This document shows, in pieces, positions 26,507-58,645 of a DNA stretch of 64,000 nt. How positions within the stretch are numbered: the stretch's first letter is position 1; each line of letters starts with the position of its first letter. A program made the translations under genes and the position numbers. Below the pieces are notes generated by a model. It searched no databases. It was not told the origin of the DNA and worked only from the letters and a program-made list of their open reading frames with translations. This stretch comes from a virus (taxonomy: Duplodnaviria; Caudoviricetes), in IMG/VR virus record IMGVR_UViG_3300048672_000970, positions 96,001-160,000 of that record; one strand, given 5' to 3'.

Positions 26507-27340
26507 CAAACGGGCTAAAACGCGCTAGGAGCGATTTGTTGGTGGAAGGTAGGCATGGGTAGCTTGACGGATGAAATCGGCTCTATGACCCGTTTAAGTG
26601 CCTTCGCGGCCCATGCTCTTATTTGTCACCTATAGGAGTTTATTGAATGAATGGAAAAGCCGGTAGGTCAGTCGGTTGGTTCCGTTCAGAGAAAGGCTGG
26701 TAGCCGGTTTGTGTGATTGGTTAGCTCAAGCGAGTTAGCTACATGTTGGTTTAACGGCTGTTAGCGCGTTCGTTGACCTGTTGGCTACCTGGGTAGTCTG
26801 TTGAGAGAAAACGGCGCTAATGCCCGTTAAACGCATTCTGGTAGCATGTTCTTATTTGTCACCTATAGGTATTTCTCAAATGAGTGGAGAGAGCTTGGTG
26901 GGTGGCTTAGGTTGATTAGCTCTCAGAAAAGCTCGGTCAAGCAGTGGCGTGAGTCGGCTTGCAGCCGGTAGGCTCAAGGTGCGAAAGAACTGCTTGACTG
27001 CTGAAGCCCTAACGGGCTGAGGTTATGTGTACAGATAGGTTAACAAACGGATGTCTAGTATCTGATAGATGAGCCTATAGAGCGATTAGGTAGAGAGGTA
27101 GCTACCCTGGTAGCCTAACGGATGAAAACGGCTCTAAAGCCCGTTAAGGCTCATTACGAGTCAATTCCTTATTTGTCACCTATAGGAGTTAGTCGAAGAA
27201 ATGAGAGGAAGGGTGGTTGGTTAGGTTGGTTCAGAGAAAAGTTAGCCGGAGTGATCAGGGCTGGCTTGACTGCTTGTTAGAGCAGCAAACAGCGAATGAC
27301 TACCCCGGCTACTGAAAAGCCCTTTAGGGCTTAAGGTTAG
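26507..27340. repeat. non-coding repeat array A (3 full units plus a terminal module)
   Basis: Core CTTATTTGTCACCTATAGG at 26618, 26851, 27168, each preceded by an imperfect inverted repeat and followed by a G/T-rich tract; homologous to 57550-58645. Confidence 0.9.
26934..27025 (+). ncRNA. putative structured RNA module, type 1 (unknown family)
   Basis: 12-bp closing stem 26934-45/26989-27000 that covaries with the copy at 58552-58618; followed by CTGAAGCCC-TAAC-GGGCTGAGG. Confidence 0.5.
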
Positions 27341-27343
27341 GTG

Positions 27344-28813
27344 TTAATAGCCTCTAAGTTCGATTCTGTCATGTTCGTCAAGGAAACGCATGAACACCAC
27401 ATTTTGAAGAAGTTCATAGTTGGTGATGTCTAACTCAGTATTTTGGTATTCATCCATAGTTTCTTTAACCTTTTTTCGGATGGCAGTCGGTTCTGCTAAA
27501 AACTTTTTAACTTGGGTTAAACGATGTTCGTTGAATTGATTTGTCCAAGTGATGACATCTCGCGGAAGATAATCGGCAATGTCAATTGAGTATTCATCAA
27601 ATTCTTCGTCGTTTTCTATAGCGGCATCACGCGCCGCATCAACATCTTGTTCATACCTCTTATACCCGTCGTTGTATTCTTCCACCTGTGCATTTACATA
27701 TGGCTGCAGGTCACGGTCGAAATATTCAGCACCATGCTTTTTCATATCTTCATCAGATACAACCAATATGTGATTAACTAAATCTGGTGAAGTTCGTACA
27801 TACTCGCGCACGATATCCATATGGGGATACTTCTGTTCAAACTCAAGTGCCCATAAAATCTGTCCATTAAACTCATTCTGTGGTTCGTCAATCATGGCTA
27901 GTTGTTCACCATCTTGTTGAATGACAGCCAAATCAGCCAAATCAGATTTTTGAAGCACGATGATGTTCTTTGCTGGGTTTGCGTTATCGATGAAAAACCA
28001 GTGTCGTGAATAATCATTCCAGAAAGATTTTGTTTCAGCGGCGGCTAAAGAAGCATTGGCGAACGCTGACAGAAGTTTTGAATCTCCATCAAGTTTGAAA
28101 TGTTCTTTGATGATGCGTTGCATGATGGCAGGGGTGTTATAATGGGTGTCATAGACAGTCACGCCATGTTCAGCATGTGGTCGTTCAGCCAATACAGCTT
28201 TGTGTTTTGATTTCTGAATGGCATTGATGATAAATGTCATCATGTTTTTTACTGCGCCAACCGTAGGATTCATTTTCCCCCAGATGAATCGACGGAATGA
28301 AAACGCCCCCTTAACAATACCATTTTCCGATTGCTCGACCCGTTCGGTAATGTCTCGATTGGCTTGGTTGTACCGTTGCATAAATTCGGTGGCAAGGTCA
28401 TCAATCGCGTCTTCAAGTTCGTCAGAATCCACGTCTACATCTTCTTCAACTGTCGTGACGATTTTTTCCCATTTGAAACGGAATGATTGGCGGTCAAATC
28501 TATTCAGAAAATAAGTGAAATGTGGATCAAGTGCCGGGTCGGTTGCACGATTATAGTTGGTGAATTGCATGGCCAGCGCGGAAAAGTTATGTGTACCGCT
28601 GCTATTATCCGCCGTGATATTAACGTAAGGTGTGACGATTGCCCCAATCAACCCTTGGGCATATTTCTCTTTCCCATATACTCCTGGCATAAAATAAACG
28701 TTCTCTTTTCGATGTTTGGAAAACTGCTTGTAATAATCTGAATAATCAGTTCCCCAATATGATTCACGTAACACAGGGTCGGTGAATGCTTCCAAAATAT
28801 GCTTTAGCTTCAT
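27344..28813 (-). CDS. hypothetical late protein (acidic C-terminal region)
   Basis: Long ORF; start moved to MKLKHILEA (28813); minus-strand TAAATA at 28833-38. Confidence 0.75.
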   Translation of the reverse strand: MKLKHILEAFTDPVLRESYWGTDYSDYYKQFSKHRKENVYFMPGVYGKEKYAQGLIGAIVTPYVNITADNSSGTHNFSALAMQFTNYNRATDPALDPHFTYFLNRFDRQSFRFKWEKIVTTVEEDVDVDSDELEDAIDDLATEFMQRYNQANRDITERVEQSENGIVKGAFSFRRFIWGKMNPTVGAVKNMMTFIINAIQKSKHKAVLAERPHAEHGVTVYDTHYNTPAIMQRIIKEHFKLDGDSKLLSAFANASLAAAETKSFWNDYSRHWFFIDNANPAKNIIVLQKSDLADLAVIQQDGEQLAMIDEPQNEFNGQILWALEFEQKYPHMDIVREYVRTSPDLVNHILVVSDEDMKKHGAEYFDRDLQPYVNAQVEEYNDGYKRYEQDVDAARDAAIENDEEFDEYSIDIADYLPRDVITWTNQFNEHRLTQVKKFLAEPTAIRKKVKETMDEYQNTELDITNYELLQNVVFMRFLDEHDRIELRGY

Positions 28814-28832
28814 AGGTCTATTCATTTAGAAG

Positions 28833-28848
28833 TATTTATCAATAAATA
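28833..28848. promoter_or_regulatory. back-to-back divergent late promoters
   Basis: TATTTA-TCAA-TAAATA. Confidence 0.6.
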
Positions 28849-28866
28849 ACTCAAAATGACAATGGT

Positions 28867-29679
28867 ATGCAACTTCTTCAAGAACTCATCGGTATCAAGA
28901 AATATTCCGGGATGACCATCATCAATGCTATCAAGCAAATTGTGCAACGAACACCAGCCGGAATCAAAACTTTCAGCGGGTCATTTGGTATCACTTTGGT
29001 TGCAGATGCATTACCGTATGTGTACAAAGTTTGGTTAGCTGACGCGGCGTATGAAAAATATATTGAACTGGTGTTAGCTCACCAAGATAACCCATTTTTC
29101 CCAAAAGTGATTGGAGATGTAGTTGAGTTGAAAAACATCTTTGCTGAAGGAAAACCACCTATTCCAACTATCAAAGTAATTCGATTGGAAAAGCTGAAAC
29201 ATGGAAATTTGTCAGAATTGAAAAATGAGGCGTTAGCCAGTGTCATTCGAGCTGGATTCGTATCGCTGGAACGTGATACCAATAAAGACCGTGTGAAAGA
29301 AAAAGTAATTCAGCGTATCAAGGAATTAGAAATTGCCTATAACGGATTCAAGACTGATTCTAAAACTGGCGCCAATCTGGCTTATATACAAAAAGCTAAT
29401 GGTAATCCGACACGCACGTTTGTCGCTTCAAATGAAGTGATGAAAGGTCGCAGTAAAGCGGCGGCGTATCTGGCTATTTCAAAAATGGATGTTGATAAGC
29501 TGGTTGACACCATTATTCAAATCCATGAAGCCTGTACTGCTCTGAACAAAATCGACCCGGAATATGATGTCTATGCGGACATGCACGAAGGCAACATCAT
29601 GTTCCGGGCGAATGGTGAATTAGTTATCACCGACCCGATGACATCTAGTAAAGGTACATACCCATTGACTCTGTTTTAA
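28867..29679 (+). CDS. Ser/Thr protein kinase-like protein (T7 gp0.7-type fold)
   Basis: SGSFG, VYKVW, DMHEGNIM catalytic loop, LVITDP. Confidence 0.75.
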   Translation: MQLLQELIGIKKYSGMTIINAIKQIVQRTPAGIKTFSGSFGITLVADALPYVYKVWLADAAYEKYIELVLAHQDNPFFPKVIGDVVELKNIFAEGKPPIPTIKVIRLEKLKHGNLSELKNEALASVIRAGFVSLERDTNKDRVKEKVIQRIKELEIAYNGFKTDSKTGANLAYIQKANGNPTRTFVASNEVMKGRSKAAAYLAISKMDVDKLVDTIIQIHEACTALNKIDPEYDVYADMHEGNIMFRANGELVITDPMTSSKGTYPLTLF

Positions 29680-29700
29680 CAATTGGTTACAAAGACGGTG

Positions 29701-29729
29701 TTGACAGTCGATGAATGCTTTGATAAAGT
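29701..29729 (+). promoter_or_regulatory. sigma70 early promoter
   Basis: TTGACA-N17-TAAAGT with TG extension. Confidence 0.65.
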
Positions 29730-57500: not shown

Positions 57501-57513
57501 TGTAACCATCCTC

Positions 57514-57544
57514 AAAAAGCCGGGCATTGCCCGGCTTTTTCTTT
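57514..57544 (+). terminator. intrinsic terminator immediately upstream of array B
   Basis: AAAAAGCCGGGC-ATT-GCCCGGCTTTTTCTTT. Confidence 0.85.
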
Positions 57545-57956
57545 GGGTGTCCAAACGAGCTAAAACGGCCTAGGAGCGATTTGATAGTGGAAGGTGGGCA
57601 CAGGTAGCTTGACGGATGAAATCGGCTCTAAAGCCCGTTAACCGCGTCCTGGCTGCATGTTCTTATTTGCCACCTAAAGGAATTTACTGAATGGATGGAA
57701 AAGCCGGTAGGTCAGTCGGTTGTCGGTTGGTTCCGTTCAGAGAAAGGTTCGTAGCCGGTTCTTAGTTGGTTAGCTCAAGTTTCAGGTTGGCTTCCGGAAT
57801 TGATTTAACGGCTGTTAGCGCGTTCTTAAGCTGCATAGACTACCTAGGTAGCTCATTGAAAGAAAACGGCTCTAACGTCCGTTTAAGCCCCTTCCTAGTC
57901 AATTCCTTATTTGTCACCTAAAGCAATTTCTCAGAATTGGTTAGAAAAGCCGGTAG

Positions 57957-58023
57957 GTCAGTCAGTCAGGCAGTCAGTCAGTCAGTTCACTTGAGTTAGT
58001 TCACTTGAGTTAGTTCAGTTCAG
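57957..58023 (+). repeat. microsatellite (GTCA)n plus a 14-bp tandem duplication inside array B
   Basis: GTCA x7 (one GGCA) 57957-84; GTTCACTTGAGTTA x2 57985-58012. Confidence 0.9.
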
Positions 58024-58229
58024 ATGTGTGCAAACAGATTGACTAAACGGACGTTAGAGCTTCTGATTAGGTAGATAGCTACCCATGTAGCCAGATGAAC
58101 AAAAATGGCTCTGAAGCCCGTTAAACGCGTTCTAGAGGTACTTCCTTATTTGTCACCTATAGGTATTTCTCAAAAGAAGTGAGGAAGGGGCTGGTAGGTC
58201 TGTTAGGTTGATTGGTTCAGAGAAAGACT

Positions 58230-58325
58230 CAGTTGACTGAATGCAGGGCTGGCTTGACTGCTTGTTAGAGCAGCAAACAGCGAATGTGGTCGGTCAACTG
58301 CTGAAGCCCGTTAGGGCTGAGGTTA
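58230..58325 (+). ncRNA. putative structured RNA module, type 2 (unknown family)
   Basis: Closing stem 58230-40/58290-300 with a G-U pair; 43-bp core identical to 27256-27298; followed by CTGAAGCCC-GTTA-GGGCTGAGG. Confidence 0.45.
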
Positions 58326-58551
58326 TGAGTACAGAAGTAGTTGACTAACGCGCTGTTAGACATCTGTTAAACGGGCCATAGCGCGATTAGAAAGGGTGGT
58401 AGCTACGTGGGTAGCCTAGCGGATGAAATCGGCTCTATGACCCGTTTAAGCCCCTTACAAGTCAATTCCTTATTTGTCACCTAAGGGTATTTTACAAATG
58501 AGTGGAGAAAAGCTGGGTAGGTGGCTTGGTTGGTTAGCTCACAGAAAAGCT

Positions 58552-58645
58552 TAGTTGAGTAGTGGCTTGAGACAGCTTGCTGCCGGTAGGCTCAAGATGC
58601 GAAAGGACTACTCAACTACTGAAGCCCTGTAAGGGCTGAGGTTAG
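58552..58645 (+). ncRNA. putative structured RNA module, type 1 (unknown family)
   Basis: Perfect 12-bp stem 58552-63/58607-18 covarying with 26934-27000. Confidence 0.5.

Follow-up and report, generated by a model that had tools for sequence, protein, structure and literature searches.

Tandem non-coding arrays with strand-specific folds in an uncultivated freshwater jumbo phage

Closest described systems

PeSL cassettes of T4-type phages, which join an early promoter to a stem-loop (Arbiol 2010, PMC2839356; Comeau 2014, PMC4122927), mediate modular shuffling (PMC4122927). The arrays that we describe here, from a 64,000-nt stretch of phage DNA (the window) and the 200-kb contig around it, are like PeSLs in that a composite stem-loop is followed by a promoter-like box and is repeated intergenically in a T4-related myovirus, and in that the repeats flank exchangeable modules, some array units being mosaic across the box. 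Unlike the arrays, PeSLs are small, carry a terminator besides their sigma-70 early promoter, and flank protein ORFs; the stem-loop block of the arrays is ~85-90 nt long and is not a terminator, their box is not sigma-70-like, their cargo is a covarying RNA fold, and the repeated entity is the whole three-unit array. Baculovirus hrs are several dispersed regions in both orientations, each with a few tandem units around an imperfect palindrome, and in these eukaryotic viruses they are bound by IE-1 and serve as enhancers or origins. The arrays are similarly dispersed, oriented and built of a few tandem palindrome-based units, but hrs are without a strand-specific RNA fold and have no sequence or protein partner in common with them. 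An earlier note on the window could match the architecture to neither of these nor to the repeats of Campylobacter phages; we agree, PeSLs being the nearest in layout, and the arrays fit none of the RNA or repeat families described so far.

T4 oriF and oriG and the T7 primary origin also place a promoter-like box before transcribed sequence (for the arrays, transcription is what we infer) at several loci per genome, and one array locus, like these origins, lies at a strand switch and skew minimum. T4 origins, however, are single ~100-bp units in which a MotA-type promoter is combined with an A+T-rich unwinding element, whereas array units are tandem, 176-350 bp long, and G/T-rich, structured and covarying downstream. 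The array core is comparable with the T7 promoter (TTGTCAC-C-TATAGG against GACTCAC-TATAGA), both being compact boxes with conserved bases just downstream, and it resembles the T7 phi1.1A promoter, ...GACTCACTATAGAGG; its variants CTATAGG and CTAAAGG parallel the T7 and T3 promoter forms. It differs in its upstream half and in an additional base that separates CAC from TATA and, unlike the T7/T3 class, it never stands before a protein gene anywhere in the contig, in which no polymerase gene was found. The arrays further resemble rrn operons, tRNA clusters and GOLLD/ROOL in that a fixed series of structured RNAs, putative in the arrays, recurs at several sites of the genome. GOLLD and ROOL are large ornate phage RNAs from lake metagenomes, and the arrays likewise occupy non-coding sequence of a freshwater phage; their units are, however, far smaller than GOLLD, each has a conserved upstream block, and Rfam (GOLLD and ROOL included) and tRNA scans of the arrays returned no match.

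Anatomy and setting of the arrays

The 200-kb contig carries five ~1-kb non-coding arrays, and as it is estimated to make up 56% of the phage genome, their number is at least five; arrays 3 and 4 of the contig are the two within the window. Each array has three or four units, and a unit consists of a U block (imperfect palindrome), a 22-nt linker, the core, and an RNA-like module downstream, the modules following the same order in all arrays, short A, then long B, then B or C. The features of the window are as follows.

26441..26446, minus strand: TAAATA late-promoter-like box (T4 type) of the leftward tail-fibre gene, left edge of array 3 (sequence reading)
26507..26617, plus strand: array 3 unit 1, U block (imperfect palindrome, u1 type) and linker (alignment, folds)
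26618..26636, plus strand: array 3 core 1, exact copy of CTTATTTGTCACCTATAGG (core search)
26637..26738, plus strand: array 3 type A module, G-U-rich hairpin GAAUGGAAAAGCCGG...UCGGUUGGUUCCGUUC, then CAGAGAAAGG
26739..26850, plus strand: array 3 unit 2, U block with apex palindrome GCTACC-TG-GGTAGT, and linker (alignment)
26851..26869, plus strand: array 3 core 2, exact (core search)
26870..27028, plus strand: array 3 type B module; 3' domain 26924-27028 matches model R1 with 111.8 bits
27056..27167, plus strand: array 3 unit 3, U block and linker (alignment)
27168..27186, plus strand: array 3 core 3, exact (core search)
27187..27342, plus strand: array 3 type C module; 3' domain 27234-27342 matches model R1 with 74.8 bits
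57514..57544, plus strand: intrinsic terminator of the upstream 460-aa gene, immediately 5' of array 4 (sequence reading)
57551..57661, plus strand: array 4 unit 1, U block (u1 type) and linker (alignment)
57662..57680, plus strand: array 4 core 1, 2 mismatches (CTTATTTGCCACCTAAAGG) (core search)
57681..57793, plus strand: array 4 type A module
57794..57905, plus strand: array 4 unit 2, U block and linker (alignment)
57906..57924, plus strand: array 4 core 2 (..CTAAAGC) (core search)
57925..58032, plus strand: array 4 type A' module with (CAGT)n microsatellite and duplicated GTTCACTTGAGTTA
58033..58144, plus strand: array 4 unit 3, U block and linker (alignment)
58145..58163, plus strand: array 4 core 3, exact (core search)
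58164..58328, plus strand: array 4 type C module; 3' domain 58220-58328 matches model R1 with 91.5 bits
58357..58468, plus strand: array 4 unit 4, U block and linker (alignment)
58469..58487, plus strand: array 4 core 4 (..CTAAGGG) (core search)
58488..58647, plus strand: array 4 type B module; 3' domain 58542-58647 matches model R1 with 115.8 bits
58686..58691, plus strand: TAAATA late-promoter-like box before the 2738-aa virion protein gene, ATG at 58707 (sequence reading; protein family)

The core, CTTATTTGTCACCTA(WRGS), i.e. CTTATTTGTCACCTA(T/A)(A/G)G(G/C), is the best-conserved element of the arrays, an invariant 15-19-bp box. It occurs in the window seven times against 0.03 expected by chance, always on the plus strand (starts 26618, 26851, 27168, 57662, 57906, 58145 and 58469; four exact copies, three with 2 mismatches), and the 17 cores of the whole contig are confined to the five arrays. 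Positions 1-15 of its 19 are identical in 18 of 19 copies, those of a related IMG/VR contig (G001) included, the exception being one T>C. The U right arm keeps a fixed distance of 22 nt from the core, although two unrelated linker sequences occur. We thus confirmed what had been noted of the seven positions, of the spacings that follow from these coordinates (233, 317, 244, 239 and 324 bp), of a 43-bp identity (27256-27298 = 58244-58286) and of a block order common to all units: imperfect palindrome, core, G/T-rich tract, CAGA(G/A)AA and a short or long folded module. The earlier note had suggested a search for further arrays, which the contig indeed holds; its two arrays in the same orientation are true of the window, but two of the five on the contig are opposite to the rest. 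Similarly, its "only two long ORF-free gaps" are the two largest (927 and 1206 bp), but four others measure 500-770 bp.

Primase (38834-39805) and DnaB-like helicase (39814-41148) genes lie between arrays 3 and 4, as had been proposed. Array 3 adjoins a tail-fibre gene, its type C module ending 1 nt short of the stop codon of a convergent 493-aa gene, and array 4 precedes the 2738-aa virion protein; the claim that arrays end beside late virion genes thus holds in the window but is not general, as the G001 array has small unannotated genes for neighbours and no annotated virion gene. TAAATA boxes adjoin arrays 1, 2, 3 and 4, and that at 26441..26446 is probably a late promoter, judged by the T4 consensus TATAAATA. 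Upstream of arrays 1-3 there is only a divergent gene, and the first U block of array 4 starts 6 nt past the terminator of the 460-aa gene (the sequence of which has two further copies in G001), leaving an array promoter no space upstream. Arrays 1 and 2 flank a 7.8-kb baseplate segment in inverted orientation to each other. The cumulative GC-skew minimum falls exactly on array 1, as does the main gene-strand switch, between helicase/methylase and baseplate modules; the minimum is confounded, because GC skew tracks gene orientation, and none of the other four arrays coincides with a skew turning point.

The arrays, at 75-92% identity, are old paralogues, and the nearest relative of unit n in one array is unit n of the others. 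In some units the upstream and downstream halves have different nearest relatives, which implies that exchange happened at or near the core. An assembly artefact was rejected, since paralogous arrays differ by 8-25% and their junctions are reproduced in contigs of other sequencing runs. As for conservation in relatives, the element was found in G001 and in contigs that other studies obtained in four further sequencing runs, but not in the nearest cultured phages, RsoM2USA and XaC1. The G001 array is ~80-90% identical, yet G001 has no protein in common with the 200-kb contig. We also looked for the array sequence in RNA sequencing runs, and no RNA run holds it.

Fold and conservation of the units

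The two parts of the unit behaved differently. The U block contains a 14-16-bp palindrome, GGCTACC-NN-GGTAGCC, with an outer inverted AAACGG/CCGTT; its motifs are conserved in sequence, its fold energy is equal on both strands, and a test for covariation found none. The inverted repeat that had been reported is therefore present, conserved in sequence but not through covariation, and U behaves as a DNA-level element. The downstream modules, on the other hand, folded better on the sense strand in 16/16 units (mean -45.2 vs -30.8 kcal/mol; Wilcoxon p = 3e-5), with G-U pairs making up 139/754 (18%) of sense pairs vs 23/556 (4%) of antisense pairs. In the 3' domain (9 units) 92% of cells are paired vs 24-42% with slid partners, and both sides change in 14/27 pairs, a level reached by 0/500 shuffles; helix 1 (11 bp) covaries at 10 of its 11 pairs. 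All four substitutions in this domain in orthologous contigs of other runs fall in unpaired positions. GNRA-type sequences (GGAA, GCGA) or GGUA form the apical loops, and a tandem G.A is present in the terminal hairpin. Small ORFs in the units vary between copies in frame and length, and by sequence reading no ORF is conserved. Of the functions offered earlier, an ncRNA locus is thus upheld for the part downstream of the core, by strand-specific fold, G-U use and significant covariation.

The downstream part has 47% G+C vs a genome mean of 44%. The GC skew of the sense strand is +0.18 to +0.26 in all five arrays, which hold 19 four-run G2 motifs on the sense strand vs 1 on the antisense (3.8 per kb vs 0.73 in the genome). 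From this composition the sense strand is G-rich and is predicted to be prone to R-loops and G-quadruplexes.

Possible functions of the arrays

We tentatively argue that the units of an array are small genes for structured RNAs, grouped in a cluster and each started from a T7/T3-like box of its own, an account that may well be right but in which our confidence falls short of even. The core would be a transcription start signal, a compact promoter for a phage-specific apparatus resembling T7/T3-class promoters (TCAC-TATAG-G), with RNA starting at G-G. The U block would act on DNA as a dyad-symmetric protein-binding or stop element separating the units, and the sequence downstream of the core would be the RNA product. 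The short RNA A (~80-120 nt) would form one G-U-rich hairpin, the loop of which tolerates (TCAG)n/(GGTT)n expansions; the long RNAs B and C (~160 nt) would start with a 5' hairpin and a single-stranded motif CAGAAAAGC, followed by an 11-12-bp helix closing a GNRA-type apical hairpin and then the terminal hairpin with tandem G.A. The divergent gene upstream of arrays 1-3 and the terminator before array 4 require the promoter to be internal, and a scan inside the arrays detected no sigma-70-type promoter. Against this account, the contig (~56% of the genome) yielded neither a T7-like RNAP, nor an RNA polymerase beta subunit or beta-prime signature, nor a sigma factor (sigma70_r2) to read the core; in the nearest cultured relative, RsoM2USA, RNAP is not annotated either (PMC8504454), and relatives would thus depend on the polymerase of the host. 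That the core drives no protein gene is unusual for phage-polymerase promoters and disfavours it as one, and separate genes are made less likely by a scan of the arrays which revealed no intrinsic terminator behind any unit. No reverse transcriptase or Ro60 gene was found in the contig.

To supply enough of a trans-acting RNA, a replicating phage would not need five or more copies scattered in both orientations, which favours a cis role. Arrays as cis-acting transcript-primed origins we consider unlikely, though the foremost of the alternatives. The core promoter would drive a G-rich transcript whose R-loop primes DNA synthesis, as modelled on T4 oriF and oriG, the T7 primary origin, ColE1 and mitochondrial origins; the sliding clamp required by T4-type late promoters may load at this R-loop too, and R-loop formation would be controlled by the folded RNA, in the manner of ColE1 RNA II. 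Skew and G2 motifs, several dispersed copies adjoining TAAATA boxes, sequence that would be transcribed behind a promoter-like core, and the position of array 1 all suit such origins, T4 oriE, oriF and oriG being likewise located at such switches (PMC3016281). T4 minimal origins, however, require a downstream A+T-rich unwinding element (PMC3016281), whereas the array downstream part is above the genome mean in G+C and highly structured. Three differentiated RNA types in fixed order with a distant covarying 3' domain are unexpected for a simple primer, and the skew argument suffers from the confounding at array 1 and from the position of the other four arrays.

Less probable still is one long ncRNA or precursor of ~0.9-1.2 kb per array, for which GOLLD and ROOL are precedents, with U and core as repeated processing or protein-binding sites and the core an RNA motif, e.g. 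a nuclease site, rather than a promoter. The core can pair with the G/U tract that follows it (90% of cells vs 42-66% when slid), so it may be transcribed, in which case the promoter would sit elsewhere; the absence of terminators between units, the fixed unit order and the duplication of arrays rather than units agree with this. But no promoter or conserved leader precedes the first U, which in array 4 directly follows a terminator, U has neither covariation nor strand preference, G001 unit 2 keeps core and RNA module with its U hairpin almost lost, and Rfam gave no match, GOLLD and ROOL included.

Equally improbable, in our view, is a role as homologous regions at the DNA level, of the kind seen in the hrs of baculoviruses or the long repeat regions of T4-like phages of Campylobacter; palindromes bound by a phage protein would be enhancers, genome-organising sites or module-shuffling recombination hot spots, and the folded strand would be single-stranded DNA. 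The dispersed multi-unit regions in both orientations, the sequence-conserved U palindrome, the inverted arrays 1 and 2 and the exchange near the core are consistent with it. Double-stranded DNA binding, however, does not explain why the downstream modules differ between strands and covary through G-U pairs; no tyrosine or serine recombinase was found in the contig, the paralogues are not homogenised, contrary to expectation under frequent recombination, and inversion of the segment between arrays 1 and 2 would change nothing, as the flanking genes each keep their own promoter. A selfish mobile cassette (PeSL-like or MITE-like), spreading without function for the phage, is very unlikely: the G001 array beside unshared proteins, the lack of the element in RsoM2USA and XaC1 and the PeSL-like layout fit it, but covariation and unit order kept across diverged paralogues indicate purifying selection on the fold, no transposase or recombinase was found in the contig, no target-site duplications were seen at the arrays, and G001 may simply represent the missing 44% of a related genome.

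If the arrays are clusters of structured-RNA genes, as we tentatively prefer, a whole 3-4-gene cluster would have been duplicated so as to occupy five or more sites of the phage genome, and the closest kinship of unit n with unit n across arrays points to long-term selection on each copy.

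The arrays and their units

The arrays are real and at least five in number. The seven copies of the 19-bp core that the earlier note had placed in the window were all recovered where it had put them, on the plus strand, four of them exact and three with two mismatches, where shuffled sequence would give 0.03 matches; the core spacings, the identical 43-mer and the block order were likewise reproduced. The two gaps holding these arrays are the largest ORF-free gaps in the window, but they are not the sole ones, as had been claimed; four others of 500-770 bp with no ORF of at least 100 aa (5695-6443, 33249-34020, 48076-48682 and 52721-53258) were noticed, and none of the array motifs was found in these four. 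Contig-wide, 17 copies of the core were counted, grouped into five clusters, while elsewhere in the contig its best resemblance has at least four mismatches.

Core clusters found by pattern scan of the contig, with the order of unit types
contig 52.0-52.6 kb, plus strand: array 1, A-B-B'
contig 60.8-61.4 kb, minus strand: array 2, A-B-B
contig 122.6-123.2 kb, plus strand: array 3, A-B-C
contig 153.7-154.5 kb, plus strand: array 4, A-A'-C-B
contig 182.6-183.3 kb, minus strand: array 5, A-B-A''-C, truncated

These clusters occupy 5 of the 14 ORF-free gaps of at least 500 bp in the contig, and about 2.5% of the contig is conserved non-coding array element. An 807-bp gap without ORFs was also noticed at contig 43533-44339.

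Each unit is composed of a U block, a linker, the core and a downstream module. Counted from the core, the U block extends from about -112 to -24; its conserved motifs are AAACGG, TAG.GCG, an apex palindrome GCTACC-NN-GGTAGC, which is confined to the arrays, and GATGAAAAC.GCTCTAA.GCCCGTT. Most copies fold into an imperfect hairpin; alignment of U, however, yielded no more than 12 consensus pairs, without any compensatory change, and the two strands have like fold energies (-23.0 vs -20.3 kcal/mol, p = 0.17). In the second unit of G001, a related IMG/VR contig, nearly all of U is gone and the core is kept. The linker is always 22 nt long and is of two unrelated sequence types. The core, CTTATTTGTCACCTA, is invariant bar one T>C; WRGS and WRTTTY come next, in that order.

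As judged by identity, unit n resembles unit n of the other arrays most (75-92%) and its own neighbours less. This position-wise similarity, together with the unit orders, implies that the arrays are old paralogues, derived from an ancestor of three units, and that selection still acts on each; neither recent duplication nor assembly error explains them. In A4u2 (array 4, unit 2), A2u3 and A5u4 the nearest relatives differ upstream and downstream of the core, which implies some exchange at or near it.

RNA folds downstream of the core

The short type A module is a single G-U-rich hairpin with (TCAG)n/(GGTT)n runs of variable length in its loop. The apical-loop microsatellites differ greatly between paralogues, comprising (TCAG)8, (GGTT)6, and (CAGT)n with a duplicated 14-mer, in the loops listed here.

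Type A loop microsatellites
locus L013:860-963, minus strand: type A loop microsatellite
locus L012:406-491: type A loop microsatellite
window 57925-58032: type A loop microsatellite

The long types B and C have a common frame of a 5' hairpin, CAGAAAAGC and an 11-12-bp helix closing an apical hairpin with a GGUA, GCGA or GGAA loop; at their 3' end stands a hairpin CUGAAGCCC-N4-GGGCUGAGG with tandem G.A, followed by GGUUA.

The RNA folds of the arrays are clearly under purifying selection. In 16/16 units the downstream module is more stable in the sense orientation, that of the core, than in antisense (mean energy -45.2 vs -30.8 kcal/mol, p = 3e-5), and G-U pairs make up 139/754 pairs in sense as against 23/556 in antisense. 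When the nine 3' domains were compared, 92% of cells were paired, against 24-42% with slid partners, and both-sided change was observed in 14 of 27 pairs (0/500 shuffles), with covariation at 10 of the 11 pairs of helix 1. By manual count the 3'-domain pair table holds about 27 G-U pairs and 2 A.C mismatches, and since the former far exceed the latter, the sense strand is the folding strand. Substitutions in orthologous contigs of other runs fell at unpaired positions in 4/4 cases, a small sample. R1, a covariance model of the B/C 3' domain, matched nine copies in the 200-kb contig and one in G001.

No match to Rfam was obtained in the window at the gathering threshold, GOLLD, ROOL, Y RNA, ribozymes, 6S and tmRNA being among the families, and with four arrays at E-values up to 5 only chance-level matches of at most 20 bits were noticed; ARAGORN found neither tRNA nor tRNA-like cloverleaf in the window. 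A Y RNA/Ro60 system was rejected, as PF05731 (TROVE) is missing from the contig and Rfam gave no Y RNA match, and so was a retron or DGR RNA, as the reverse transcriptase PF00078 is missing from the contig. Conserved small ORFs or leader peptides do not fit because reading frames vary between units, nor do CsrA-sponge GGA motifs, as GGA lies within stems and not in every unit. SRP-like and 6S-like folds, a DnaA box and CRISPR-repeat resemblance were each considered and rejected.

The core as candidate start site

Since arrays 1-3 are preceded only by a divergent gene and array 4 starts 6 nt past an intrinsic terminator, sense transcription, if any, must begin within the units. No sigma-70-type promoter was found inside the arrays, and the core is the obvious candidate start site. 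It can pair with the G/U tract downstream of it (90%, as against 42-66% for slid partners), so that the core may itself be transcribed.

T7-type promoters are conserved boxes of about 19-23 bp ending CAC-TATA-G(+1), located in front of phage genes. The core is similar to T7 and T3 promoters, as comparison with T7 phi1.1A showed, and reads as TCAC.TATAG with one inserted base; however, it is confined to the arrays and never precedes a protein gene. Among other promoter types, sigma-70 was rejected, as TTGTCA, though a fair -35, has no -10 after it; sigma-54, as the GG/GC spacing does not fit; and a MotA-type middle promoter, as there is no TAnnnT -10 at the proper distance. Also rejected, on reading the sequence, were the Bacteroidetes TAnnTTTG promoter and, for either strand, the T4 late box.

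Searching the contig, which is about 56% of the genome, revealed no T7-like RNAP (queries PF00940 and T7 gp1) and no beta subunit (PF00562), beta-prime DxDGD motif or sigma70_r2. The giant ORFs of 1231, 2494 and 2738 aa gave no RNAP match, their matches being to structural-protein families or to none, and no RNAP motifs were seen on reading the 2738-aa sequence. It may be noted that the 1231- and 2494-aa ORFs both lie on the minus strand at contig 10527-21736 (locus L059); the latter has minor-tail/structural matches confined to its N-terminus, and the former has no Pfam or PHROG match. RNAP is not annotated in the genome of the jumbo phage RsoM2USA (PMC8504454).

Our preferred reading, which we hold tentatively, is that the arrays are paralogous clusters of putative small structured-RNA genes, in each of which the core would serve as start signal, while U would act at the DNA level as a control or boundary element.

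Phage context, relatives and other possible roles

The IMG/VR viral contig, of 200,363 bp and freshwater origin, is estimated to be 56% complete, and the window corresponds to its bases 96001-160000. Its family matches are those of a myovirus (T4-like tail-fibre tip, baseplate wedge and tail tube), and include a T4-type large terminase, a DnaB-like helicase, a DnaG-like primase and a YeaG/PrkA kinase cluster. The closest cultured relatives, all distant, are RsoM2USA, XaC1, XacN1 and the 121Q/PBECO4 group, jumbo phages of about 310-385 kb, with 28-35% identity in helicase and tail tube and 53% in the YeaG kinase. At window 14334-20576 three large conserved genes, of which one is sporulation-protein-like, come after the YeaG/PrkA-like kinase gene; the kinase is common to RsoM2USA, Enterobacter phage LAU1 and 600-kb megaphage records (45-53% identity). 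The large terminase has 662 aa (L060:1452-3440, contig 177451-179439), with array 5 located 3 kb downstream; its residues 213-279 gave a weak intein-splicing-domain match, and the protein may contain an intein.

A role of the arrays as transcript-primed origin or enhancer is possible, though unlikely. Their sense strand has a GC skew of +0.18 to +0.26 and 19 G2x4 motifs against 1 in antisense; array 1 lies at the cumulative GC-skew minimum and main gene-strand switch, and T4 oriE, oriF and oriG are positioned at similar switches (PMC3016281). A T4-type R-loop origin (oriF/oriG) was rejected, as there is neither a -10 at the right distance nor a sigma-70-type site, and as the downstream part is structured and has 47% G+C vs 44% for the genome, while an A+T-rich unwinding element is part of the T4 origin definition (PMC3016281). 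Similarly doubtful is a new cis-acting R-loop element, combining origins and clamp-loading sites, or else an rrn-like multi-copy operon. In the former case tandem promoter-plus-structured-RNA units would form R-loops, which would be multiple replication origins for a genome of about 350 kb and would load the sliding clamp activating adjacent T4-type late (TAAATA) promoters; T4 late-type TAAATA boxes do sit between the arrays and the adjoining virion genes. In the latter, the operon would provide for a phage-made three-RNA ribonucleoprotein.

Inside the arrays no intrinsic terminators above chance were found, three weak terminator-like sites in array 3 being at chance level; that an array yields one long processed RNA nevertheless appears improbable. 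We consider an hr-like DNA element to be equally improbable. The layout of five arrays with 17 units, each having a U palindrome, is that of a baculovirus-type hr, a likeness of layout only and not homology. PeSL cassettes join a sigma-70 early promoter to a terminator stem-loop and flank ORFs. The arrays were rejected as such, having no sigma-70 promoter, no terminator between units and no conserved ORF in the cargo. Integron attC and invertase (shufflon, Gin/Cin) sites were rejected, as PF00589 and PF00239 are missing from the contig; the RYYYAAC/GTTRRRY match is present in one U subtype only. The arrays are none of the described RNA families, repeat systems or origin types.

G001 (32.6 kb) has a two-unit array about 80-90% identical to those of the 200-kb contig, and the two contigs have no proteins in common; either a related phage genome is represented in G001 by the portion that the 200-kb contig lacks, or the array is mobile between phages. 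That the arrays are a selfish cassette is very improbable. The intrinsic terminator preceding array 4 (AAAAAGCCGGGCATTGCCCGGCTTTTT, window 57514-57544) recurs twice in G001, at L061:2657-2683 (27/27 nt) and G001 22660-22690 (30/31 nt), which suggests either kinship between the phages of origin or regulatory cassettes common to both contigs. Furthermore, pieces 80-99% identical, array-flank junctions included, are present in contigs from four further runs, each belonging to a different study; the recorded sources are two freshwater metagenomes, one bat metagenome and one unspecified metagenome.

Blastn against 50,697 phage records gave no match to the arrays. In IMG/VR the core pattern found a single true relative, L009 in contig G001, besides two chance matches in coding sequence; JGI metagenomes yielded one match, by chance, and GTDB genomes nine single matches, fewer than expected by chance. 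The two Undibacterium matches, which were the GTDB matches read, are in the same orthologous coding gene, and the other seven were taken as chance because the total is below chance expectation. Nothing beyond L009 was found with the terminal-hairpin pattern in IMG/VR, a protein-anchored search for syntenic loci via two flanking genes gave no result, and R1 had no match in RsoM2USA and XaC1. Analogous arrays in RsoM2USA were rejected after its whole genome was read, as the gaps inspected at 104-112 kb, with dispersed repeats, are tRNA clusters. A literature search with the core sequence returned unrelated primers only, and the search for RNA runs listed none.

The array element, which joins an invariant DNA box to RNA folds, is in no database, and the 15-bp box and the R1 model are handles to locate it in metagenomes and for experiments. 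A cis-acting R-loop element or an rrn-like operon, either of them if true, would be without precedent in bacteriophages, and a cis role would make the arrays the first origins or late-gene enhancers defined by sequence in this large, poorly understood phage group. If the units are indeed RNA genes, they would represent new phage RNA families, A and B/C, together with a compact promoter type, and would hint that jumbo phages related to Rak2/121Q have a transcription component as yet unrecognised.
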